Source of the DNA: Clostridia bacterium
GTDB lineage: Bacteria; Bacillota; Clostridia; Oscillospirales; CAG-272
Direction: 5' to 3'
Assembly: GCA_017445085.1 (NCBI GenBank)
Contig: JAFSUT010000032.1
Coordinates: 1-43,135 of the forward strand
Length of the DNA: 43,135 bases
Of the stretch, positions 15,365 to 41,469 are shown piece after piece. The notes beneath the pieces were generated by a model. That model saw nothing but the letters and a program-made list of their open reading frames with translations, had not been told where the DNA came from and searched no databases. The translations under genes and the position numbers were made by a program. Within the stretch, counting starts at the first letter, position 1; each line of letters begins with the position of its first letter.

Positions 15365-15440
15365 TGGAGCTGGTAGCCGGACTCGAACCGGCGACCTGTT
15401 GATTACGAATCAACTGCTCTACCAACTGAGCCATACCAGC
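15365..15440 (-). tRNA. tRNA-Thr(CGT)
   Basis: 76 nt GCTGGTATGGCTCAGTTGGTAGAGCAGTTGATTCGTAATCAACAGGTCGCCGGTTCGAGTCCGGCTACCAGCTCCA; anticodon loop TTCGTAA, T-loop GTTCGA, encoded CCA. Confidence 0.97.
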
Positions 15441-29875: not shown

Positions 29876-30853
29876 ATGAAGATTTTGGTCACCGGCGGTG
29901 CGGGCTTTATCGGCTTTCACCTCTCCAAGCGCCTCCTGGACGATGGGCATACCGTCGTCGGCTTTGACAACTTGAACGACTACTACGACGTCGGGCTCAA
30001 ATATGCGCGGCTGGACGTCTTAAAACCCTACGAAAACTACACCTTTATCAAAGGCGACCTCGCGGATAAAGGCGCCGTGTTTGCGCTGTTTGAAAATGGC
30101 GCGCCGGACGTTGTCGTCAATCTCGGTGCGCAGGCGGGCGTGCGCTACTCGATCACCAACCCCGACGTGTATATCGAATCCAACATCATCGGATTTTTCA
30201 ACATTTTGGAGGCCTGCCGCCGCTACCCCGTAAAGCATCTCCTGTTTGCTTCCTCCTCCTCGGTGTACGGCAACCAAGAGAAAACGCCGTTTTCCACCGA
30301 CGACAACGTTGACCACCCCATCAGCCTTTACGCCGCAACCAAAAAGAGCAATGAACTGATGGCGTTTACCTACAGCCACCTTTACAAGATCCCCGCCACA
30401 GGTCTCCGCTTTTTCACGGTCTACGGTCCCTTCGGCAGACCGGATATGGCGTACTTCGGATTTACCAACAAGATCATGGCGGGCGAGCCGATCAAAATTT
30501 TCAACAACGGCGATATGTACCGCGATTTTACCTATGTGGACGACATCGTAGAGGGGATTTGCAATATGCTGAACTGTCCGCCGGCGGCGGATGCCAACGG
30601 CGACCGCTACAAGGTCTACAACATCGGCAACAACAAGCCGGAAAAACTGATGTACTTTATCGAAACGCTGGAAAAAGCCATTGGCAAGACCGCAAAGAAA
30701 GAGTTTTTGCCCATGCAGGCGGGCGACGTGTACCAGACCTATGCCGACGTCTCCGACCTTATGCGTGATTTCGGTTTCAAGCCCGCGACCTCCATCGAAG
30801 AGGGGCTTGCCCGCTTTGCGGCGTGGTATAAAGAATACTACCATATCACCTGA
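29876..30853 (+). CDS. NAD-dependent epimerase, UDP-glucuronate 4-epimerase type
   Basis: TGGAGFIG, AQAGVRYS, ASSSSVYG, YAATKK, LRFFTVYGPFGRPDMA, RDFTY. Confidence 0.9.
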   Translation: MKILVTGGAGFIGFHLSKRLLDDGHTVVGFDNLNDYYDVGLKYARLDVLKPYENYTFIKGDLADKGAVFALFENGAPDVVVNLGAQAGVRYSITNPDVYIESNIIGFFNILEACRRYPVKHLLFASSSSVYGNQEKTPFSTDDNVDHPISLYAATKKSNELMAFTYSHLYKIPATGLRFFTVYGPFGRPDMAYFGFTNKIMAGEPIKIFNNGDMYRDFTYVDDIVEGICNMLNCPPAADANGDRYKVYNIGNNKPEKLMYFIETLEKAIGKTAKKEFLPMQAGDVYQTYADVSDLMRDFGFKPATSIEEGLARFAAWYKEYYHIT

Positions 30854-30949
30854 CGCACAGAGAAGAGCCGCGCCGCAAAGCAGGCGCGGGCAAGGATGCT
30901 TCCCATGCGAAAACTTGTAAAAAAATCTCGGATTTTTTTGATTTTTCTC

Positions 30950-30978
30950 TTGACGCGCCGTATTTTTTGTGCTACACT
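30950..30978 (+). promoter_or_regulatory. sigma-A promoter of the aro operon leader
   Basis: TTGACG-N17-TACACT with extended -10 TG. Confidence 0.75.
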
Positions 30979-31010
30979 GATTCCATTCTGAAAAGAAAGG
31001 TCAAAGAGCC

Positions 31011-31121
31011 GTGCAGAACATTCGTTTGAACAGCGTATTTGCATATTATTATTTTAGCTTTATCTATACAACGGATAAGGCTTGTTTTGCTGTTCAAAAA
31101 TCCGCAGTCGGCGCAAATTGA
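31011..31121 (+). CDS. Tyr/Phe-rich attenuator leader peptide (36 aa, MQNIRLNSVFAYYYFSFIYTTDKACFAVQKSAVGAN)
   Basis: GTG start with GAAAGG upstream; 7 of 10 consecutive codons are Tyr or Phe; lies between the promoter and the terminator of the aro operon. Confidence 0.8.
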   Translation: MQNIRLNSVFAYYYFSFIYTTDKACFAVQKSAVGAN

Positions 31122-31146
31122 CCGCTCTCGGATCGTTTGAAACCGT

Positions 31147-31188
31147 ACAGGGTTTGCAGCAAACAAGTTGCAAACCCTGTTTTTATTT
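31147..31188 (+). terminator. Attenuator terminator of the aro operon leader
   Basis: 14-bp stem ACAGGGTTTGCAGC/GTTGCAAACCCTGT followed by TTTTATTT, about 40 nt before aroF. Confidence 0.85.
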
Positions 31189-31227
31189 GTCAACAAAACT
31201 ATAATATAAATAAAAGGAGAAAAAACA

Positions 31228-32238
31228 ATGATCGTCATCTTAAAGCAAAATGCAGACAAAGCGCAGATCTCACAACTTGAGTCCTGGATCCGCAGCATGG
31301 GGCTGGATATCCACAAGTCGCAAGGGCAAAACTCCACCATCCTCGGGCTGGTCGGCGACACCTCCAAGGTGGACATCGACCTTGTCGGCGCCCTCGACAT
31401 CGTGGAAAACGTCAAACGCATCCAGGAGCCGTACAAAAACGCCAACCGCAAGTTCCATCCGCTGGACACCGTGGTGGATATCGGCGGCGTCAAGATCGGC
31501 GGCGGGCATTTTGCCGTCATCGCCGGTCCCTGCTCGGTGGAATCCGAGGCGCAGATCTGTGAGGTCGCGGCGGCGGTCAAGGCAAGCGGCGCGCTTCTCC
31601 TGCGCGGCGGCGCGTTCAAGCCCCGCACCTCCCCCTACTCTTTCCAGGGGATGCGCGGCGAGGGCATCAAACTGCTCTCCGAGGCCAAGGCAAAAACCGG
31701 ACTGCCGATCGTCACCGAGATCATGGACATCTCGCAGCTGCCGCTGTTTGAAAACGTGGATATGATCCAGGTCGGCGCACGCAATATGCAAAACTTTGAG
31801 CTTTTGAAAGAACTCGGACACGTCGATAAGCCGATCCTCCTCAAACGCGGTCTTGCCAGCACGATCGAGGAACTGCTGATGAGCGCGGAGTACATCATGG
31901 CGGGCGGCAACGAAAACGTCATCCTCTGTGAGCGCGGCATCCGCACCTTTGAGACGGCGACCACGCGCAACACGCTGGATCTGTGCGCCATCCCCGTCCT
32001 CAAAGAGCGCACGCATCTGCCCGTGATCATCGACCCGAGCCACGCCACCGGCGTTGCACGCCTGGTCAAGCCGATGTGCATTGCCGCCACCGCGGCAGGG
32101 GCGGACGGTTTGATCGTCGAGGTACACAACGACCCCGCGCACGCGCTGTGTGACGGCAAGCAGTCGCTGACGCCCGAAGCATTTGACGACGTGATGAAAT
32201 GCGTGGAGGCGATCCGCCCCTACGCTTACAAGGGATAA
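31228..32238 (+). CDS. aroF: 3-deoxy-7-phosphoheptulonate (DAHP) synthase, class I-beta with N-terminal regulatory domain
   Basis: IAGPCSVESE, GGAFKPRTSPYSFQG, GARNMQNFELL, LKRG, CERGIRTFE, DPSHATG. Confidence 0.95.
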   Translation: MIVILKQNADKAQISQLESWIRSMGLDIHKSQGQNSTILGLVGDTSKVDIDLVGALDIVENVKRIQEPYKNANRKFHPLDTVVDIGGVKIGGGHFAVIAGPCSVESEAQICEVAAAVKASGALLLRGGAFKPRTSPYSFQGMRGEGIKLLSEAKAKTGLPIVTEIMDISQLPLFENVDMIQVGARNMQNFELLKELGHVDKPILLKRGLASTIEELLMSAEYIMAGGNENVILCERGIRTFETATTRNTLDLCAIPVLKERTHLPVIIDPSHATGVARLVKPMCIAATAAGADGLIVEVHNDPAHALCDGKQSLTPEAFDDVMKCVEAIRPYAYKG

Positions 32239-32242
32239 GCCC

Positions 32243-32271
32243 TTGTCTCCCGAACGAAAATACGCTATAAT
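32243..32271 (+). promoter_or_regulatory. Possible internal promoter between aroF and tyrA
   Basis: TTGTCT-N17-TATAAT in the short intergenic spacer. Confidence 0.55.
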
Positions 32272-32289
32272 GGAGTGAAACGGTTTCCT

Positions 32290-33126
32290 ATGAACATCTG
32301 TATCTGCGGACTCGGACTCATCGGCGGCTCGCTGGCAAAAGCCGTCAAAGCAAAGACGGCGCATACCGTCTACGGCGTAGACCGTGACGCCGCCGTGGCG
32401 GCGACGGCGCTGTCCGACGGTGCGATCGACAAGATCGCGAAAAGAAACGACCTTGCCGACTGTGAGCTTATTATCCTCGCCCTCTATCCGAGAGCCGCCG
32501 TCGAATTTGTCCGCGACCACCTAGCAGACTTTCGCCCGGACGCGATCCTGCTTGACACCTGCGGCATCAAGCGGGAGGTCATGGACGGCATCCGGCGCGC
32601 GACGGCGGGGACCTCTCTCCGCTTTATCGGCGGTCACCCCATGGCAGGCATCGAAAAGAGCGGATTTTCCGCCGCGTTTGCCACCCTGTTTGAAGGGGCG
32701 TCCATGATCCTCTGCACCGAAGCCTGCCGGGACGAGCGCGCTGTCAAAACGGTCGGCGACCTGTGCCGCGCCCTCGGCTTTGCGCGCATCACCATCTCCA
32801 CCGCCGAGCATCACGACAAGGTCATCGCCTTTACCTCGCAGCTTGCGCACGTCGTTTCCGCCGCCTACATCGCGGGGCAATACGCCACAAAGCACGCGGG
32901 ATTTTCCGCCGGCTCGTTTCGGGATATGACGCGCGTAGCGCGCCTGAACCCCGAGATGTGGACCGAACTCTTTTTTGAAAACCGCGAAAACCTCTCGGAC
33001 GTCATCGGCGAACTCATCGAAAATCTCGGCAAGTTCAAAACCGCGCTGGACAGCGGCGACGCCGCCGGGATGCACACGCTGCTGAAAGAAAGCAACGAGC
33101 GAAAGATCCGCTCCGAAAATCTGTGA
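32290..33126 (+). CDS. tyrA: Prephenate dehydrogenase
   Basis: ICGLGLIGGSLAKA, DTCGIK, GGHPMAGIE, HDKVIAFTSQLAH, GSFRDMTRVA. An alternative GTG start lies at 32275. Confidence 0.92.
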   Translation: MNICICGLGLIGGSLAKAVKAKTAHTVYGVDRDAAVAATALSDGAIDKIAKRNDLADCELIILALYPRAAVEFVRDHLADFRPDAILLDTCGIKREVMDGIRRATAGTSLRFIGGHPMAGIEKSGFSAAFATLFEGASMILCTEACRDERAVKTVGDLCRALGFARITISTAEHHDKVIAFTSQLAHVVSAAYIAGQYATKHAGFSAGSFRDMTRVARLNPEMWTELFFENRENLSDVIGELIENLGKFKTALDSGDAAGMHTLLKESNERKIRSENL

Positions 33127-33158: not shown

Positions 33159-34208
33159 ATGAAAAAAATTACCGTAAACACAAGCCGCGTCTACGAGGTT
33201 TTCATCGGCGGCCGACTCCTCTCGCACGCAGGAGAACTTCTTGCGGCGGCCGTGCCCGTGCAAAAAGCCCTCGTCGTCTCGGACGATATCGTATATCCGC
33301 TCTACGGAAAAAAGCTGGAGAGTTCGCTCTCCGCGGCCGGATTTTCCTGCCGCAACTTTGTTTTTCCAAACGGGGAGGCGCACAAACGGCTCTCTGTCAT
33401 TGAGGAGATCCTTGAGTATCTTGCAAAAGAGCATTTCTGCCGCAGCGACGTCGTCGTCGCGCTCGGCGGCGGCGTCTGCGGCGACATGGCGGGCTTTGCG
33501 GCGGCGATCTTTTGCCGCGGCATCCGCTATATCCAGGTGCCGACCACCCTGCTTGCGGCGGTGGACTCCTCGGTCGGCGGCAAAACCGCCGTGGATCTCT
33601 CCTGCGGGAAAAATCTGTGCGGCGCGTTCCATCAGCCCGCCCTCGTGCTGTGCGACACCGACACGCTGTCCACCCTCGCACCGCAAAATACGGCGGACGG
33701 ACTTGCCGAAATGCTCAAATACGGCGTCATCTGCGACGCCGACCTCTTTGAAAAGGTCAAAAACTACAAAAACGAAGATATGGAAGCCCTCATCGCCCGT
33801 TGTGTGGAGATCAAGCGCGACGTCGTCGCCGAGGATGAATTTGACCGTGGCACGCGGCAGCTTCTCAACCTCGGACACACGGTCGGTCACGCTATCGAAG
33901 CGGCGTCCGGCTTTAAGATCACGCACGGGCAGGGCGTCGCCGCCGGTATGGCGATCGTCGCACGGGGGGCGGAGGCGCTCGGGCTATGTACGCCGGGCAC
34001 GGCAAAACAGATCGAGGACGCGCTCGACGCGTGCGGTCTGCCGCAAAACTGCGACTTTGACGCGGATACGCTGGCGACCCTGACGCTCTCTGACAAGAAA
34101 GCCGACGGCGACTTTATCCATCTGATCATCCCGCGGCGCATCGGCAAGTGTGAGATCGTCCGCACAAAGCAGGACGACGTACGGCGGCTGATCGCCCGCG
34201 GTCTGTAA
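33159..34208 (+). CDS. aroB: 3-dehydroquinate synthase
   Basis: GEAHK, ALGGGVCGDMAGF, PTTLLAAVDSSVGGKT, LNLGHTVGHAIE, HGQGVA. Confidence 0.95.
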   Translation: MKKITVNTSRVYEVFIGGRLLSHAGELLAAAVPVQKALVVSDDIVYPLYGKKLESSLSAAGFSCRNFVFPNGEAHKRLSVIEEILEYLAKEHFCRSDVVVALGGGVCGDMAGFAAAIFCRGIRYIQVPTTLLAAVDSSVGGKTAVDLSCGKNLCGAFHQPALVLCDTDTLSTLAPQNTADGLAEMLKYGVICDADLFEKVKNYKNEDMEALIARCVEIKRDVVAEDEFDRGTRQLLNLGHTVGHAIEAASGFKITHGQGVAAGMAIVARGAEALGLCTPGTAKQIEDALDACGLPQNCDFDADTLATLTLSDKKADGDFIHLIIPRRIGKCEIVRTKQDDVRRLIARGL

Positions 34209-34230
34209 AACGGCGCTTTTGGGGGCAAAA

Positions 34231-35508
34231 ATGGACATCAACATCCAAAACACAAAACTCTGCGGCGAGATCCGCGCCATCAGCGCAAAATCCGACGTCC
34301 ACCGCTTTTTGATCGCGGCGGCGCTGGCACACGGGCGCTCCAAGATCTCGTTTACCACCCTCTCCGCGGACATTTCCGCCACCGTCGGCGTACTGCGCAC
34401 GCTTGGTGCAGAGATCACCGTATGCGGCGGCGACGGCGACTATACCGCCACCGTCCTCGGGGCGCGACCCGTCCCGCAAGACTGCGTTCTCGATGCCGGT
34501 GAATGCGGCACCACGGCGCGCCTGTGCCTGCCCGTGGCGGCGGCGCTGACCGACGGCTTTACCATGGCGGGAAAAGCCGGACTTGCCGCGCGCCCGTTTG
34601 CCGACCTCTGTACCGCCATGCAAAGCGGCGGCGCCGACTGTTCGAGTGACCGCCTGCCCATCCGCGTGCGCGGCAGGCTGACCGCCGGCGACTACACCAT
34701 CCGCGGCGACGTCAGCTCGCAATATATCAGCGGACTGCTCTTTGCCCTGCCGCTGCTCGGCGGCGACAGCCGCATTCACCTGTCCACACCGCTCGCCTCG
34801 GCAGGCTACGTCGATATGACGCTGGACACGCTCTCGCGCTTCGGCGTCACGGTCGAAAAGGCGGCGGACGGCTATTTCGTCCCCGGCGGGCAGACCTACC
34901 GCCCCGTTGCCGCCTACGCCGCCGAGGGCGACTGGTCAAACGCCGCCTTTTGGCTGTGCGCGGGTGCGCTCGGCGGCGATATCTGCGTGCGCGGACTGCA
35001 CCTTGCCTCCCGCCAGCGCGACCGCGTGATTTCAGAGCTCTTGCAAGCCGCCGGCGCAGACGTCTCCTTTGCAGGCGACGGCGTGCGCGTGCGCGGCGGC
35101 GCTTTGCACGCGATCAACGTCGACGGGCGCGACGTCCCCGACCTCTGCCCCGTCCTTGCCTGTGTCCTTGCCTGCGCCGACGGCGAAAGCAAAATCAGTG
35201 GCAGTGCGCGCCTGCGGCTCAAAGAAAGCGACCGTATCGCCAGCACGACGGCACTGCTGTGCGCCCTCGGCGGCGAAGTCACCCCCACCCCCGACGGCTT
35301 TATTTTGCACGGCAAAAGCATTCTCCCCGGCGGGGTGTGCGACGCGGCAAACGACCACCGCATCGCGATGTGCGCCGCCGTCCTTGCCTGCCGCACGGCA
35401 GGCGGCGTCCGTCTCCTCGGCGCACAGGCGGTGAACAAATCCTACCCGACCTTCTTTTACGACTTTCAAAAACTCGGAGGAACATACAGTGTCATCACAA
35501 ATGGGTAA
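34231..35508 (+). CDS. aroA: 3-phosphoshikimate 1-carboxyvinyltransferase (EPSP synthase)
   Basis: AKSDVHR, GECGTTAR, SSQYISGLL, EGDWSNAAF, RLKESDRI, NDHRIAM, VNKSYP. Confidence 0.95.
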   Translation: MDINIQNTKLCGEIRAISAKSDVHRFLIAAALAHGRSKISFTTLSADISATVGVLRTLGAEITVCGGDGDYTATVLGARPVPQDCVLDAGECGTTARLCLPVAAALTDGFTMAGKAGLAARPFADLCTAMQSGGADCSSDRLPIRVRGRLTAGDYTIRGDVSSQYISGLLFALPLLGGDSRIHLSTPLASAGYVDMTLDTLSRFGVTVEKAADGYFVPGGQTYRPVAAYAAEGDWSNAAFWLCAGALGGDICVRGLHLASRQRDRVISELLQAAGADVSFAGDGVRVRGGALHAINVDGRDVPDLCPVLACVLACADGESKISGSARLRLKESDRIASTTALLCALGGEVTPTPDGFILHGKSILPGGVCDAANDHRIAMCAAVLACRTAGGVRLLGAQAVNKSYPTFFYDFQKLGGTYSVITNG

Positions 35509-36571
35509 ACAGATCACGATCACGGTCTTCGGCGAATCGCACGCCCCCGCCGTCGGTATGACGCTTTGCGGCGTCCCGGCGGGCGAGCGGATCGATTTTG
35601 AGGCGCTCGCCGCCTTTATGCGGCGGCGCGCCCCCGGCAAAGACGCCATTTCCACCGCGCGGTGCGAGGCGGATATCCCTGAGTTTTTATGCGGCGTCAC
35701 GGGCGGCGTCACCACCGGCGCCCCCATCACCGCGATCATCCGCAACAGCGACACACGCTCGTCCGACTACAAAGGATTTTCGCAAACGCCGCGCCCCTCC
35801 CACGCCGACTACACCGCCACGGTCAAGTACGGCGGAAAAAGCGATATGCGCGGCGGCGGACATTTCTCGGGCAGACTGACCGCCCCGCTCTGCATCGGCG
35901 GCGGCGTCGCGCTCCAGATCCTCGCGCGGCGCGGCGTAAAAATCGGGGCGCACGCCCTGCGCATTGCCGACGTCAGCGACACGCCGTTTGATTTGGCAAA
36001 AGTGGACGAAAGCACCCTCGACGCGCTCGCGGCGCGTGATTTTCCGACCCTCTCGCCGGCGGCGGGCGAAAAAATGATCGGAGAGATCCTCGCGGCAAAG
36101 CGCGAGGGCGACTCGGTCGGCGGCGTGATCGAATGCGCCGTCCTCGGTATGCCCGCGGGCTTTGGCGCGCCGATGTTTGACGGGATCGAAAACCGCCTTG
36201 CGGCGGCGCTGTTCGGCATTCCCGCCGTCAAGGGCGTGGAATTCGGCAGCGGGTTTGCCGCCGCCGGGATGCGCGGCAGCGCCCACAACGATCCCTTTAT
36301 CTTTGAGGGCGGCATCGTGCGCACCAAAACCAACAACAGCGGCGGCGTGCAAGGCGGAATTTCCAACGGGATGCCTATCGTCTTTCGCATCGCGGTAAAA
36401 CCGACGCCCTCCATCGCCAAAGAACAACAGACGGTCAACCTGCAAACAGGGGAGGCCGCAGCGCTGACGATCGGCGGACGGCACGACCCCTGCATCGCCG
36501 TGCGCGCCGTCCCCGTCACCGAGGCGGTCGCGGCGCTGACCATACTTGATATTTTAAGCGAGGTACAATAA
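35489..36571 (+). CDS. aroC: Chorismate synthase
   Basis: GESH, PRPSHADY, RGGGHFSGRLTA, GDSVGG, KGVEFGSG, TNNSGGVQGGISNG, KPTPSI, GRHDPC; GTG start 8 nt after GGAGG. Confidence 0.96.
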   Translation: MSSQMGKQITITVFGESHAPAVGMTLCGVPAGERIDFEALAAFMRRRAPGKDAISTARCEADIPEFLCGVTGGVTTGAPITAIIRNSDTRSSDYKGFSQTPRPSHADYTATVKYGGKSDMRGGGHFSGRLTAPLCIGGGVALQILARRGVKIGAHALRIADVSDTPFDLAKVDESTLDALAARDFPTLSPAAGEKMIGEILAAKREGDSVGGVIECAVLGMPAGFGAPMFDGIENRLAAALFGIPAVKGVEFGSGFAAAGMRGSAHNDPFIFEGGIVRTKTNNSGGVQGGISNGMPIVFRIAVKPTPSIAKEQQTVNLQTGEAAALTIGGRHDPCIAVRAVPVTEAVAALTILDILSEVQ

Positions 36572-37714
36572 ATGGATATGAAAAAGATCCGCACCGAGAT
36601 CGACGCGCTGGACGACGTCATCAAAGACGCGTTCCTGCGCCGGATGGAACTCTGCGCCGGTATGGCGGCATATAAAAAAGAAAACGGCCTGCCCGTCTTT
36701 TACCCCGCGCGGTAGCGCGAGATCGTTGCGCGGCTGACCAAAGAGATGCCGGCGGATATGGCAACCTATACCAAGGTGCTCTACAACACCCTGTTTGAAG
36801 TTTCCCGCGCGTATCAGACGACAAAGATCTCGGACGGCGGCAGACTGTCCGCCCGCATCAAAACGGCGATCGAAAATACGCCAAAGACCCTGCCCACGAC
36901 CTGCACGGTCGCCTGCCAGGGGACCGAGGGTGCAAACTCCCAGCGCGCCGCCGAAAAACTGTTTTCGATCCCCACCATCCTCTATATGGGCAGCTTTGAG
37001 GGCGTGTTCAACGCGGTGGCGAGCGGCTTTTGCCGCTACGGCATCCTGCCGATCGGCAACAATCTGCACGGCTCGGTCACCGAGGTCTACGACCTGATGA
37101 AAAAACACAAATTTTATATCGTCAAGAGCATCAAACTGCGCATTGACCACACGCTCGTCGCAAAGCCGGGCGTTCCCCTCTCGGACATCAAGGAGATCTT
37201 TTCGCATCCGCAAGCCATCGGTCAATGCCAAAAGTTCTTGTCCTCGCTTGCAGGGGACGTCAAGGTCACCGAGTGCGCCAACACCGCCCTTGCCGCCAAA
37301 ATGGTGGCACAGAGCGACAGGAGCGACGTCGCCGCGATCTGTGACGCCGGGTGCGCCGAACTTTACGGGCTTTGCGCGCTCGAAAAAAACATCGCCGACA
37401 GCGACAACAACTATACGCGCTTTATCTGCATCTCCAAAGACCTTGAGATCTACCCCGGCTCGGACAAAACCAGCATTATGTTCACCCTGCCGCATACCCC
37501 GGGCTCGCTCTTTTCGGTGATCGCAAAGTTTGCCGTCCTCGGCGTCAACTTTTCCAAAATCGAAAGCCGTCCGATCCCCGGCCGCGACTTTGAATATATG
37601 TTCTACCTCGACTTTGACGCCTCGATCTACTCCGGCGGTCTGCTCGAAGCGCTGAATTCCTTTGACGCCGAATACGAGGGCGGCAGTTTTCTCGGCTGCT
37701 ACACCGAAATCTGA
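36572..37714 (+). pseudogene. pheA: Chorismate mutase / prephenate dehydratase (P-protein) interrupted by an in-frame TAG at codon 48; PDT-ACT part intact
   Basis: MDMKKIRTEIDALD...RRM...AAYKKENGLPVFYPAR*REI (CM domain; TAG at 36713-36715) continues in frame into QGTEGANS, SHPQAIGQC, NYTRF, IESRP, FYLDF. The stop may be a sequencing error. Confidence 0.8.
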
Positions 37715-37738: not shown

Positions 37739-38995
37739 ATGCGTGAGCGCAAAAACGATTTTTATCTCATCGGCGAAAAACTCGGGCATTCGCATTCCCC
37801 CGCCATCCACGCGCTGCTCGGCAACAAAAACTACGCCCTGCGCGAAGTGCCGCGCGATGAACTTGCCGCCTTTTTTGCGGCGCGGCGCTTTTCCGGCGTC
37901 AACGTTACCATCCCGTACAAAGAGGCGGTCATGCCGCTGTGCGACGTCCTCGACGGCGCCGCCGTGGACATCGGCGCGGTCAACACCGTCGTAAATATGG
38001 ACGGCACGCTCTTCGGCTGCAATACCGACTTTGACGGATTTATCTTTATGTGTCACCTCTCGGGCATCGATTTTGCAGGCAAGAAAGTCCTGATCCTCGG
38101 CAGCGGCGGCACCTCCAAAACGGCGGCCGCCGCCGCAAAAAAAATGGGCGCCGCCGCCGTTACAAAGGTTTCGCGCAGCGGCAGCGTCAACTATGAAAAC
38201 GTCTATACCGCCGCGCACGACGCACAGATCGTGGTCAACACAACGCCGGTCGGTATGTATCCAAACGGCGACGGCTGTCCGCTGGACATCGCGCGTTTTC
38301 CGGATCTCTGCGGCGTGGTGGACGTGATCTACAATCCCCTCCGCACGCGACTCATCGCCGAGGCAGAGCGCCTGCATATCCCCGCCGCGGGCGGACTTGC
38401 GATGCTGGTGGCGCAGGCGGCGTTTGCCGACCGCTATTTCCGCGCACGGACGCACAGCGGCGAAAACATCGTCCGCATCATCGCCGCGATGCGCGCGCGG
38501 CTGACCAACATCGTGCTTGTGGGGATGCCGGGGTGCGGAAAAAGCACGATCGGCAAGATCCTCGCGGCAACGACCGGGCGCAAGCTTTTTGACATCGACC
38601 GCATCATCACCGAGCGGGCGGGGATCTCCATCCCCGAGATCTTTGAAACGCAGGGCGAGAGCGCCTTTCGCGATATGGAAACCGAAGTAACGCGCGAGGT
38701 TGCCGCAAACTGCGGCGCGATCATCGCCTGCGGCGGCGGCACCGTACTGCGTGAGGTCAACCGCGCCGCCCTGCGACAAAACGGCTGTATCTTCTACATC
38801 AAGCGCAAGACCGAAAACCTGGCGCGCGGGGGCAGACCCCTCTCCGCGGGCGACGGCGCCCTGGAAGCGCTGTATGCGCAGCGCCACACCGTCTACGAAG
38901 ATTTTGCAGACATGATCGTACCCGAAAGTCCAAGCGTCGGCGCCGCCGCCATGGCGACGCTCGAAGCCTTTCGGAGAAAGGATTTTTCAAAATGA
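37739..38995 (+). CDS. aroE: Shikimate dehydrogenase - shikimate kinase fusion (AroE-AroK)
   Basis: LGHSHSPAIH, NVTIPYK, GAVNT, NTDFDG, GSGGT, NTTPVGM, DVIYNP; then LVGMPGCGKSTIG, GESAFRDME, ACGGG, RP. Confidence 0.92.
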   Translation: MRERKNDFYLIGEKLGHSHSPAIHALLGNKNYALREVPRDELAAFFAARRFSGVNVTIPYKEAVMPLCDVLDGAAVDIGAVNTVVNMDGTLFGCNTDFDGFIFMCHLSGIDFAGKKVLILGSGGTSKTAAAAAKKMGAAAVTKVSRSGSVNYENVYTAAHDAQIVVNTTPVGMYPNGDGCPLDIARFPDLCGVVDVIYNPLRTRLIAEAERLHIPAAGGLAMLVAQAAFADRYFRARTHSGENIVRIIAAMRARLTNIVLVGMPGCGKSTIGKILAATTGRKLFDIDRIITERAGISIPEIFETQGESAFRDMETEVTREVAANCGAIIACGGGTVLREVNRAALRQNGCIFYIKRKTENLARGGRPLSAGDGALEALYAQRHTVYEDFADMIVPESPSVGAAAMATLEAFRRKDFSK

Positions 38996-39426
38996 AACTA
39001 CTCGTCATCAACGGCCCCAATCTCAATATGCTCGGTGTACGCGAACCGGAGATCTACGGCAAAAGCACCTACGCCGACCTTGTCGGGATGATCGAGGCGC
39101 ACGCGGCAGAAAAAGGCGTGGACGTGCACTGTTTTCAATCCAATCACGAGGGCGCGATCGTGGACGAGATCCAGGCGGCGCTCGGCGTATACGACGGCAT
39201 CGTCATCAATCCCGCCGCCTACACGCACACCAGCGTTGCCATCCTCGATGCCCTCAAAGCCGTCGCCATCCCGACGGTGGAAGTGCATATTTCGGACGTG
39301 AATGCGCGAGAGGAATTCCGCCGCCGTTCCTTTGTATCCGCCGTCGCGCTGAAAACCATCGCCGGTCACGGCTTTGACGGCTATATCGAGGCGATGGACC
39401 TCTTGCTCTGCCCGCTGCAAAAATAA
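38992..39426 (+). CDS. aroQ: Type II 3-dehydroquinate dehydratase
   Basis: INGPNLNMLGVREPEIYG, QSNHEG, NPAAYTHTSVAILDA, EVHISD, REEFRR. Confidence 0.96.
   Translation: MKLLVINGPNLNMLGVREPEIYGKSTYADLVGMIEAHAAEKGVDVHCFQSNHEGAIVDEIQAALGVYDGIVINPAAYTHTSVAILDALKAVAIPTVEVHISDVNAREEFRRRSFVSAVALKTIAGHGFDGYIEAMDLLLCPLQK
39316..39412 (+). repeat. 97-bp direct repeat, copy 1 (3' end of aroQ)
   Basis: Identical to 41496-41592. Confidence 0.95.
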
Positions 39427-39526
39427 GTTGTGCGGCAGTTTCGCGTGTTTCCGCGGCTTTATTCAAAGGCGGCGGTCATCAACAGGACATGCCGGCAATT
39501 TTGCTAAAACTAAGAAAAAACTCTTG

Positions 39527-39566: not shown

Positions 39567-39595
39567 TTGAAAACAAGCGCAAATAATGCTATAAT
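39567..39595 (+). promoter_or_regulatory. sigma-A promoter of the R-M operon
   Basis: TTGAAA-N17-TATAAT with extended TG. Confidence 0.75.
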
Positions 39596-39632: not shown

Positions 39633-40469
39633 ATGAATATTATCAATGCTATATACAATCTTGTAAACAGACCTGTTATTGATGTTGTATCATACTATAC
39701 CGGAAAGAACAGAGCGAACAACTCCGGTGACGCCCTTGAGGAATACATAAAAGATTTATTTGCCGGTACTTTTGATATGAATGAAACTGAAAGACTGGAA
39801 ACGCTCAACAATGTTTTTTCTTACCTGGGAAACAACAGCAATCCTCCGGATGCTATGCTGCGCGGCGGTGATGCTATCGAAACAAAGAAGATTGAAAGTA
39901 ACGGTTCTGCTCTCGCTTTGAATTCAAGTTACCCCAAACATGATTTGAAAAGCGATAGCCCTATGATTTCAAATGCTTGCCGCACTGCTGAACATTGGAT
40001 TAAAAAAGATATGATTTATGCCGTTGGAATTGTTAATAATGATAAATTAAAGCATTTGGCTATGGTGTATGGTCTTGATTATTGTGCAAGTGAGGAATGT
40101 TACAGCCGTATTAAAACCACAATCAAAAACGGTGTAGAATCAATACCGGGTGTAGAATTTGCCGAAAGCAGAGAATTAGGCCATATCAACAAAGTAGACC
40201 CCCTCGGAATAACATATATGCGCGTTCGCGGTATGTGGGGGATTGAGAACCCGTGGAAAGTGTTTGAGTACATCTATCAAAGAGATTTCACAAATTCCTT
40301 CAACTTTATGTGTATCATCAATGAAAGTAAGTGGAACTCCTTTGACAATACGGAATTGATCACCTCGCTTCATATTCATGGTTTTGACATTCGCGATGTA
40401 AGGATCAAAAATCCGGATAATCCTGCCCAGCTTGTCAATGCAAAACTAATCACTTACTTTCTGAATTGA
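39633..40469 (+). CDS. Type II restriction endonuclease, NgoPII family (predicted GGCC)
   Basis: [66 protein letters not shown], recognised from memory as NgoPII-like. Confidence 0.85.
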
Positions 40470-40479
40470 GGTGCAAGAT

Positions 40480-41469
40480 ATGAAGGTCATCAGCCTTTTT
40501 TCCGGTTGCGGCGGGTTAGACCTTGGTTTTGAACGAGCAGGATTTGATATTCCTGTTGCAAACGAGTTCGACCCTACCATTTGGGAAACATTCAAAATCA
40601 ATCATCCTGAAACAAAACTGATTGAGGGTGACATTCGTAATATTAAAGCAGATGATTTTCCGGCAGATGTTGACGGTATAATCGGCGGTCCTCCGTGCCA
40701 GTCGTGGAGCGAAGCCGGAAGTTTAAGAGGTATCAACGACGAACGAGGCAAGTTGTTTTATGACTATATACGCATATTGAGAAAAATTCAACCAAAGTTT
40801 TTTCTTGCAGAAAATGTTCCCGGTATGCTTGCCGCGCGTCATAGCGAAGCCGTAAAAAACATTATCCAAATGTTTGAGGAAAGTGGTTATACTCTTTCCG
40901 TCACAATGGTAAATGCAAAAGACTACGGGGTTGCCGAAGAAAGAAAGCGCGTTTTTTACATAGGTTTTCGTAAGGATTTGAAGAAAAGTTTTGCTTTTCC
41001 CAAAGGCAGTACCGAAGACGATCATAAAAAAATCACTCTTCGTGATGTGATCTGGGATTTGCAGGATACGGCAGTACCGGCAATCCCGCACAACCGCCAC
41101 AATCCGCAAGCCATAAACAACAACGAGTATTTCACAGGCGCTTATTCGACAATTTTTATGAGCAGAAATCGTGTTAAAAGTTGGGACGAACAAGCCTTTA
41201 CAGTTCAAGCATCGGGCAGACAGTGCCAGTTGCATCCGCAAGCGCCGAAAATGCAATTTATCGAACAAAACAAAAGACGGTTTGTTCCGGGGAAAGAGCA
41301 TTTATATCGCCGGATGACCGTTAGAGAAATCGCGAGAATACAGGGGTTTCCTGATGACTTTCACTTTATCTACGATAATGTGGATGATGCTTATAAGATG
41401 ATCGGTAATGCAGTACCTGTCAATCTTGCTTATGAAATCGCCACTGCAATTGCAAATCAACTAGAATAA
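40480..41469 (+). CDS. C5-cytosine DNA methyltransferase, M.HaeIII/M.NgoPII-like (predicted GGCC)
   Basis: FSGCGG, GGPPCQ, ENV, RKRVF, GNAV motifs; target-recognition segment [31 protein letters not shown] as in M.HaeIII; GAGGTG SD before the ATG at 40480. Confidence 0.93.

Follow-up and report, generated by a model that had tools for sequence, protein, structure and literature searches.

A probable leader-peptide attenuator for phenylalanine and tyrosine before the aroF operon of an uncultured gut clostridial genus, and aromatic leader peptides before aroF in Clostridia

The leader upstream of aroF

We examined the control region of a shikimate operon in a 43,135-nucleotide (nt) stretch of DNA, hereafter the window, which makes up positions 1 to 43,135 of contig JAFSUT010000032.1 (assembly GCA_017445085.1) from an uncultured clostridial lineage (Oscillospirales, CAG-272). 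Upstream of aroF, the first gene of an aroF-tyrA-aroB-aroA-aroC-pheA-aroEK-aroQ operon, lies a leader that combines a short upstream open reading frame (uORF) rich in phenylalanine (Phe) and tyrosine (Tyr) codons with an intrinsic terminator. We consider it very probable that this leader is a genuine ribosome-mediated transcription attenuator that senses the charging of Phe-tRNA and Tyr-tRNA, and the level of the whole operon is most likely set by it.

All features of the leader and of the operon lie on the forward strand. A promoter-like site, TTGACG-17-TACACT, occupies positions 30950-30978 and carries an extended -10 TG at 30970-30971. The match to the promoter consensus is not beyond chance when taken alone (one found against 0.9 +/- 0.8 in shuffles, over 700 bases); TTGAC and TGCTAYA occur at the identical aligned place in all 14 rows of the genus alignment that reach that far. 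A Shine-Dalgarno (SD) sequence, AGAAAGG (30994-31000), follows, with GAAAGG at the same aligned place in most rows of the genus, and then the leader uORF itself (31011-31121), which begins with GTG, runs for 36 codons and ends with a TGA stop at 31119-31121. Its translation is VQNIRLNSVFAYYYFSFIYTTDKACFAVQKSAVGAN (36 residues), in which codons 10-19 (31038-31067) read F-A-Y-Y-Y-F-S-F-I-Y; Phe and Tyr thus account for seven of these ten codons, compared with 7.1% of the codons in nine genes counted (the eight genes of the operon and the upstream epimerase gene). The whole uORF contains four TTT and four TAT codons and no tryptophan codon. We find no clear pattern of rare-codon design: for Tyr the leader uses TAT in four of four cases, the minority codon in the nine genes (25 TAT versus 59 TAC), but for Phe it uses TTT, which those genes also prefer (99 TTT versus 29 TTC).

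The intrinsic terminator (31147-31190) consists of a 14-bp stem (31147-31180), seven pairs of which are G-C, with a loop of 6 nt and a folding energy of -23.3 kcal/mol, followed by the T-rich tail TTTTATTTGT. The ribosome binding site of aroF, AAGGAG, is at 31214-31219. A preliminary description of this DNA, made from its letters alone, had proposed the promoter, the 36-residue GTG-initiated frame, the aromatic codons 10-19, the 14-bp terminator and two mutually exclusive pairings, termed 1:2 and 2:3; checked directly against the sequence, every one of these is present at exactly the coordinates proposed. Between the terminator and the aroF ribosome binding site there is also a TATAAT hexamer (31200-31205), lacking a -35 element at proper spacing, and AT-rich text resembling this region is present in several relatives; were the hexamer active as a promoter, it would bypass the attenuator.

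The DNA sequencing runs that contain this stretch are labelled as bovine, sheep and other gut metagenomes. A contig from one of them (X1) differs from the window over 30900-31629 by five other letters and two gaps, and the changes include T>C at 31055, which turns a Phe codon TTT into the synonymous TTC, and T>C at 31168, whereby a G.U pair in the terminator becomes G-C; both substitutions, which belong to a close strain, are compatible with an attenuator. Contigs from RNA libraries (three runs) are short and lie inside the coding part of aroF, with zero over 30900-31416, so that the leader itself is uncovered.

Alternative pairings within the leader

The leader can be partitioned into three pairing segments upstream of, or within, the terminator. 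Segment 1 (31025-31035) is the 5' strand of the lower stem of a hairpin that we call P1, and contains an invariant GAACAGC; its three outer pairs have changed on both sides within the genus. Segment 2 (31081-31098) is shared between two partners, as 31088-31098 pairs with segment 1 and 31081-31092 pairs with segment 3. The latter, CAGCAAACAAG (31157-31167), runs from the top of the terminator's 5' arm through the loop to the first base of the 3' arm, and is the antiterminator partner of segment 2. Both of the mutually exclusive pairings that had been proposed are found: 1:2 (31025-31034 with 31089-31098) is contained in the minimum-energy fold, and 2:3 (31081-31092 with 31157-31167) forms with one bulged U and a duplex energy of -16.4 kcal/mol. 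The pairing ascribed to segment 1 therefore stands, yet the segment is better described as the entire 5' strand of hairpin 31025-31098, since the 1:2 helix is the base of the larger P1 (31025-31098; -22.7 kcal/mol), whose upper stem-loop of 10 bp (31056-31082; -9.8 kcal/mol) has codons 16-19 of the uORF as its 5' arm. The leader as a whole folds at -69.4 kcal/mol (z = -6.07), and 0 of 200 shuffled sequences are as stable.

A further possible hairpin, ATCCG...CGGAT, lies within 31100-31133, between the region of the uORF stop and the terminator. In the minimum-energy fold 31100-31133 pairs with the SD region, and in the genus some members have a different hairpin here and others only a short AT-rich spacer.

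Conservation of the leader within the genus

Leader DNA was matched in 16 of the 18 other genomes of the genus; in the two without it, G001 (95% complete) and G013 (75%), no aroF match was found either. All 17 loci of the genus, the window included, carry the uORF in the corresponding position, and its core reads ...NS.(F/Y)AY(F/Y)YFSFIY(F/Y).DKACFAV... The aligned start is GTG or ATG in 14 of the 17 rows, and in the other three an ATG lies a few bases off. The genus alignment has three insertions or deletions inside the uORF, each of 3 nt, so the frame is kept.

The proposed helices are also retained. In this alignment (A1) 94.1% of 595 cells are paired, compared with 34-48% when the partners are slid by one to three columns, and 8 of 35 pairs have changed on both sides (five in the terminator and three in the outer part of lower P1), a number that 0 of 500 shuffles equal. 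The terminator has 95.4% of its cells paired, the compensatory changes falling at five of its pairs, and upper P1 has 98.2% paired with zero changes on both sides. Within segment 2, TTTTGCTGTT is invariant across the genus. The 2:3 antiterminator is retained in every genus sequence: nine have GTTTTGCTGT opposite (A/G)CAGCAAAAC, and the remaining ones keep the helix by means of G.U wobbles. In two genomes (G011 and G007) the positions of 31084 and 31064 have changed in a compensatory manner, to A and T, respectively.

The strongest case for a leader frame that is read rests, in our judgement, on the codons that lie outside the helices. Across the 17 genomes, the unpaired codons 10, 12, 13, 14, 15 and 20 each occur as two to four different codons, yet 95 of 97 cells specify Phe or Tyr; the codons seen at these positions are TTT, TAT, TAC, once CTT and once ACA. 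The adjacent unpaired codons vary freely, codon 9 encoding V, I, T, L, A or Y and codon 21 encoding T, M or V. Because Phe or Tyr is kept at positions that are unpaired and whose nucleotides change, selection for interchangeable Phe and Tyr explains the pattern, whereas RNA pairing cannot. Moreover, the free exchange of Phe for Tyr codons, and the reverse, over evolutionary time makes a response of the leader to either amino acid probable, and such a response would suit an operon holding both tyrA and pheA.

Aromatic leader peptides as the usual element before aroF in sampled Clostridia

A search with a 21-letter core pattern returned 28 loci, consisting of 16 aroF leaders of the genus (in metagenome-assembled genomes, MAGs) and 12 chance matches without aroF, and was rejected as a route to wider reach. 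As sequence search stops at the genus, the wider survey went by way of aroF, reading the DNA upstream of the gene. In the family, aroF was matched in 32 of 81 genomes, of which 27 were retained after exclusion of two from the same genus (G000 and G002) and three whose matches lacked the N-terminus (G056, G101 and G102). All 27, which represent other genera and have the full N-terminus of aroF, show an aromatic-rich uORF, for example MRNVFFASYYYYFIFHKR or MKAVLFAAYYYFYFTFYKVKVIFAAKSAMPV.

For tallying we applied a fixed rule, namely a uORF of 8-60 residues with at least six F/Y/W in some 10-residue window, located within 360 nt of aroF. Under this rule the family gives 25/27 on the forward strand, 0/27 on the reverse complement and 13/540 in dinucleotide shuffles. 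The other families of the order (22 families) give 26 of 40 loci, compared with 1 of 40 on the reverse complement and 15 of 800 shuffles, and the other orders of the class (40 families) give 26 of 40, compared with 1 of 40 and 24 of 800, respectively. The reverse-strand and shuffle controls rule out chance uORFs in AT-rich DNA as the source of these counts. The 40 loci of the order set were hand-picked among the matches listed, at one to three per family and with best scores first, and are not random; the class set holds one match per family among the matches listed, and the families of 48 unlisted matches are unsampled. Consequently, these values are frequencies in our sample and not estimates for the taxa. 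Outside the genus, 77 of the 107 sampled aroF loci in total carry an aromatic-rich uORF. The distant leader peptides are about 17 to about 57 residues long and aromatic-rich in frame with an ATG, with little shared sequence and no common motif.

The rest of the architecture recurs as well. Our own scan finds a hairpin followed by a T run before aroF in 72 of the 77 uORF-bearing loci. Among these 72 leaders, complementarity between the stretch after the aromatic codons and the aromatic-codon region (1:2) beats 95% of shuffles in 48 (median z -2.69), and complementarity between the same stretch and the terminator's 5' arm and loop (2:3) does so in 32 (median z -1.63), where about 3.6 of 72 would be expected by chance in each test. 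In the leaders numbered L053-L159 many terminators have a GCAG(U/C)...CUGC apex and many peptides have a C-terminal Cys-Cys, whose codons (UGCUGC) would form the antiterminator strand; as an order-wide rule, however, a CUGC/GCAG antiterminator motif fails, with both motifs found together in just 17 of 72 leaders.

The preliminary description had seen no T-box in the leader, and Rfam searches agree: at the gathering score over the whole window there is no T-box or other family at the leader, and a search of 30840-31260 relaxed to E up to 10 gives no meaningful match, T-box and enterobacterial leader families included. A T-box (RF00230) or other known RNA family at this leader is accordingly rejected. 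The sole Rfam match in the window is a tRNA gene at 15368-15440 on the reverse strand (73.8 bits). Scanned in the same way, 25 sampled aroF loci without a uORF yield T-boxes at three (L097, L118 and L155; 93-120 bits). With 77 of 107 loci carrying aromatic uORFs and three of 25 carrying T-boxes, the generalisation that Bacillota rely on T-boxes, which the preliminary description had invoked as the usual control and against which it had presented the leader as an oddity in a Firmicute, fails for aroF in the Clostridia sampled. The aromatic leader peptide, and not the T-box, is the usual element before aroF in this sample.

A proposed mechanism and its alternatives

The leader contains each of the parts by which a classical attenuator is recognised, that is, a short open reading frame that lies downstream of the promoter and ahead of the first gene and has its own ribosome binding site and start codon, a cluster of codons for the end products of the pathway, a terminator, and mutually exclusive 1:2, 2:3 and 3:4 pairings. 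These parts were observed directly, as were their conservation, the covariation of the terminator and of part of P1, the one compensatory change in 2:3, and the selection on Phe and Tyr codons. From them we infer a course of events, in which translation of the uORF, ribosome stalling, the folding order and the starvation response are predictions from the sequence. Transcription would start a few bases past the -10 element, at approximately 30985, and a ribosome would load at the leader SD sequence and GTG. With ample Phe and Tyr, the ribosome would pass codons 10-19, reach the stop at 31119 and leave, whereupon P1 (31025-31098) would form and sequester segment 2; with segment 2 locked, the terminator (31147-31180 and its U run) would fold, and most transcripts would stop short of aroF. 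Under a shortage of Phe-tRNA or Tyr-tRNA, the ribosome would instead stall at the TTT or TAT codons and, as the 5' strand of P1 includes these codons, segment 2 (31081-31092) would stay free. Free segment 2 could then base-pair with the terminator apex and loop (31157-31167) while the 3' arm is still to be transcribed, the terminator hairpin would fail to nucleate, and the polymerase would continue into the operon.

This attenuator logic, as set out in the preliminary description, is supported by conservation in the genus, by covariation, by the selection on Phe and Tyr codons and by the same architecture in distant relatives; of the features that it had recommended looking for in relatives, the aromatic uORF was found both in the genus and far beyond it, and covarying stems were found in the genus. 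Several observations nevertheless weigh against it. The invariance of upper P1 and segment 2 means that they offer no support from covariation. Folds of the full-length transcript keep the terminator every time. Constrained folding, also suggested in the preliminary description, gives the switch partial support at most: when a 30-nt ribosome footprint is masked, the antiterminator forms only with the A site placed at codon 12 (31044), but for A sites at 31038, 31050, 31056 and 31065 no switch is seen, the lower stem closing around the mask. Stalls at codons 15-19 would, moreover, leave the lower-stem strand 31025-31035 uncovered. Of the 16 leaders of the genus that could be evaluated with RNA 5' of the ribosome removed to imitate a stall, seven show more pairing of the terminator's 5' part with upstream RNA and nine show no change (the terminator of G014 was mis-parsed). 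In the 72 distant leaders the effect is weak, the mean upstream pairing being 5.8 nt with no ribosome, 8.5 nt with a stalled one and 6.6 nt in the shuffled control. Of the terminator, the 2:3 helix takes up just the loop, 4 nt on the 5' side of the stem and 1 nt on the 3' side. As 10 base pairs of the lower stem could still form, antitermination rests on a kinetic argument: it would have to act by blocking nucleation of the hairpin at the terminator apex. The kinetic order of folding events is something that equilibrium folding cannot capture. Finally, transcription outruns translation in Bacillus subtilis, and if the same applies here it would tell against the proposed attenuation.

Three other explanations deserve consideration. 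The conserved RNA might be a switch for a factor acting in trans, whether that factor is a protein, a metabolite or, in the manner of T-boxes, a tRNA, with the open frame a by-product of U-rich sequence. The best-conserved parts are indeed RNA pairing partners (upper P1 and segment 2), and the aromatic codons are U-rich and partly paired with an A-rich strand. However, Rfam gives no match even at E up to 10, by a method that detects real T-boxes elsewhere, and the conserved SD sequence and GTG or ATG start, the frame-keeping indels and the Phe or Tyr identity of the unpaired codons in 95 of 97 cells all weigh against a mere by-product. Distant leaders, furthermore, share in-frame aromatic composition and little sequence, with 0-1 matches on the reverse strand, and a switch of this kind appears to us very unlikely. 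An untranslated uORF before a terminator that is mere constitutive or leaky punctuation, with no regulated switch, would agree with the in silico fold of the full-length leader; yet a constitutive terminator of 14 bp, placed as this one is after a conserved promoter, would shut off the complete biosynthetic operon behind it, and the complementarity of 1:2, 2:3 and 3:4 recurs in distant relatives (48 and 32 of 72, against about 3.6), so that we find this account barely credible.

Alternatively, the uORF might work through its peptide, either as a small hydrophobic protein or as a TnaC-like arrest peptide sensing free Phe or Tyr. The peptide is well conserved within the genus, and leader peptides are reported elsewhere to act in trans (PMC7298713). 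Outside the genus, however, only aromatic richness is kept, in peptides of such different lengths and with no common motif, and the conservation at genus level coincides with the RNA pairing partners; an arrest peptide would in addition have a biosynthetic operon induced by its own abundant products, which would make no regulatory sense. A role for the peptide itself is, we believe, highly improbable, and attenuation by a ribosome stalling at Phe or Tyr codons remains our preferred explanation for this leader.

Relation to known systems and significance

Leader peptides are already known as a means of controlling aroF, and the mechanism proposed here is no surprise. By gene, the closest known case is aroR-aroF of Corynebacterium glutamicum, for which the review PMC11802643, citing Neshat et al. 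2014, describes a Phe-Tyr-Phe leader before an aroF-led operon, with readthrough that increases on Phe limitation and Tyr without effect. As far as that description goes, to which our likening is confined, aroR is actinobacterial and has three regulatory codons, whereas the window leader has seven aromatic codons in ten. The same review presents pheL-pheA and pheM-pheST of Escherichia coli as leader-peptide attenuators with 1:2, 2:3 and 3:4 pairings. The window leader resembles pheL, as outlined there, in having an open reading frame with end-product codons, exclusive pairings and an intrinsic terminator before a gene of the Phe pathway; pheL and pheM differ in that they are enterobacterial, respond to Phe only and precede a single gene or a synthetase, whereas the window leader holds both Phe and Tyr codons and precedes the full pathway with both branches.

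Two earlier reports of predicted uORFs come from the Breaker laboratory. The uORFC-13-1 motif, known from Acholeplasma and environmental sequences with 24 representatives, exclusively before aroF and with "at least one" Phe, is predicted to act through how fast Phe is incorporated (Brewer et al. 2021, PMC8632094). Compared by description, it shares with the window leader the order of promoter, ribosome binding site, start codon, U-rich Phe-coding uORF and terminator before aroF, but its description is without Tyr, whereas the window leader has both amino acids. Stav et al. 2019 (PMC6429828), in a study of five genomes, Clostridium novyi among them, note two candidate Phe/Tyr uORFs tied to shikimate genes, and by that description these may belong to the same family as the window leader or to a different one. 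More broadly, Ashniev et al. 2022 (PMC9413887) predict leader attenuators with His codons for his operons of Firmicutes, including Peptostreptococcaceae and Erysipelotrichales; leader-peptide attenuation of amino acid operons is shared, and the codons (His) and the lineages differ. Ribosome-mediated attenuation of resistance genes is reported for B. subtilis (PMC4191407 and PMC6851288), and a T-box leader is described for a Tyr operon of the Bacillus cereus group (PMC2494555). T-boxes (RF00230) share with the window leader the task of sensing tRNA charging before aromatic genes, but they read uncharged tRNA directly and need no translation. Our literature search, with subscription journals outside its scope, found nothing specific describing a Phe/Tyr aroF leader in Clostridia.

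It is tempting to see the window leader as a member of a large family, or of several families, of dual-codon Phe/Tyr attenuators absent from Rfam 15 (an absence judged from the window's own leader sequence) that, rather than T-boxes, form the main control of aroF operons across Clostridia. We put this forward tentatively, as a possibility towards which we incline slightly less than away. The prevalence of aromatic leaders across the Clostridia is nonetheless a more interesting result than the single locus, for which the analysis provides a tested annotation of an unannotated small open reading frame and a regulatory logic for the complete shikimate, Tyr and Phe operon of an uncultured gut clostridial genus. 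If the view of a large family is true, ribosomes in these Firmicutes would track RNA polymerase closely enough for classical attenuation of biosynthetic operons. Such coupling would contrast with the picture of uncoupled transcription and translation in B. subtilis. If confirmed, the leaders would be natural systems in which to test transcription-translation coupling in Firmicutes, and possibly a source of Phe/Tyr-responsive parts for use in anaerobes.

The operon and its surroundings

The first gene downstream of the leader, aroF (31228-32238), encodes a DAHP synthase with an N-terminal ferredoxin-like domain (PF00793, PF18152), a domain that would mediate feedback inhibition of the enzyme by Tyr and Phe. 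It is followed by tyrA, encoding prephenate dehydrogenase (32275-33126; PF02153, PF20463), and then by aroB (33159-34208), aroA (34219-35508) and aroC (35489-36571). The ATG of pheA (36572-37714) comes directly after the aroC stop; the prephenate dehydratase domain (PF00800) covers 36746-37714, and the N-terminal part, judged by eye, looks like a chorismate mutase. An aroE-aroK fusion (37739-38995) combines a shikimate dehydrogenase N-terminal domain (residues 10-84) with a shikimate kinase (residues 264-400), and aroQ (38992-39426), encoding a type II dehydroquinase, ends the operon. A weak terminator-like site at 39441-39456 follows aroQ. The operon therefore holds the whole common pathway together with the Tyr and Phe branches and, by a Pfam scan, no trp genes, which matches a leader that has Phe and Tyr codons and no Trp codons.

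The pheA frame contains an in-frame TAG at 36713-36715 (codon 48), where seven of seven relatives of the genus have Glu, in the motif PAREREIV. This TAG may have arisen by nonsense mutation, may vary between strains or may reflect misassembly of a MAG that is 53% complete.

Three further observations concern the DNA within and beyond the operon. A promoter-like site, TTGTCT-17-TATAAT, is located between aroF and tyrA (32243-32271) and, if active, would bypass the attenuator. Directly after the operon lies a gene for an NgoPII-type restriction endonuclease (39633-40469; PF09521), which has a strong promoter-like site of its own, TTGAAA-17-TATAAT, at 39567-39595. The next open reading frame extends from 40471 to 41469.

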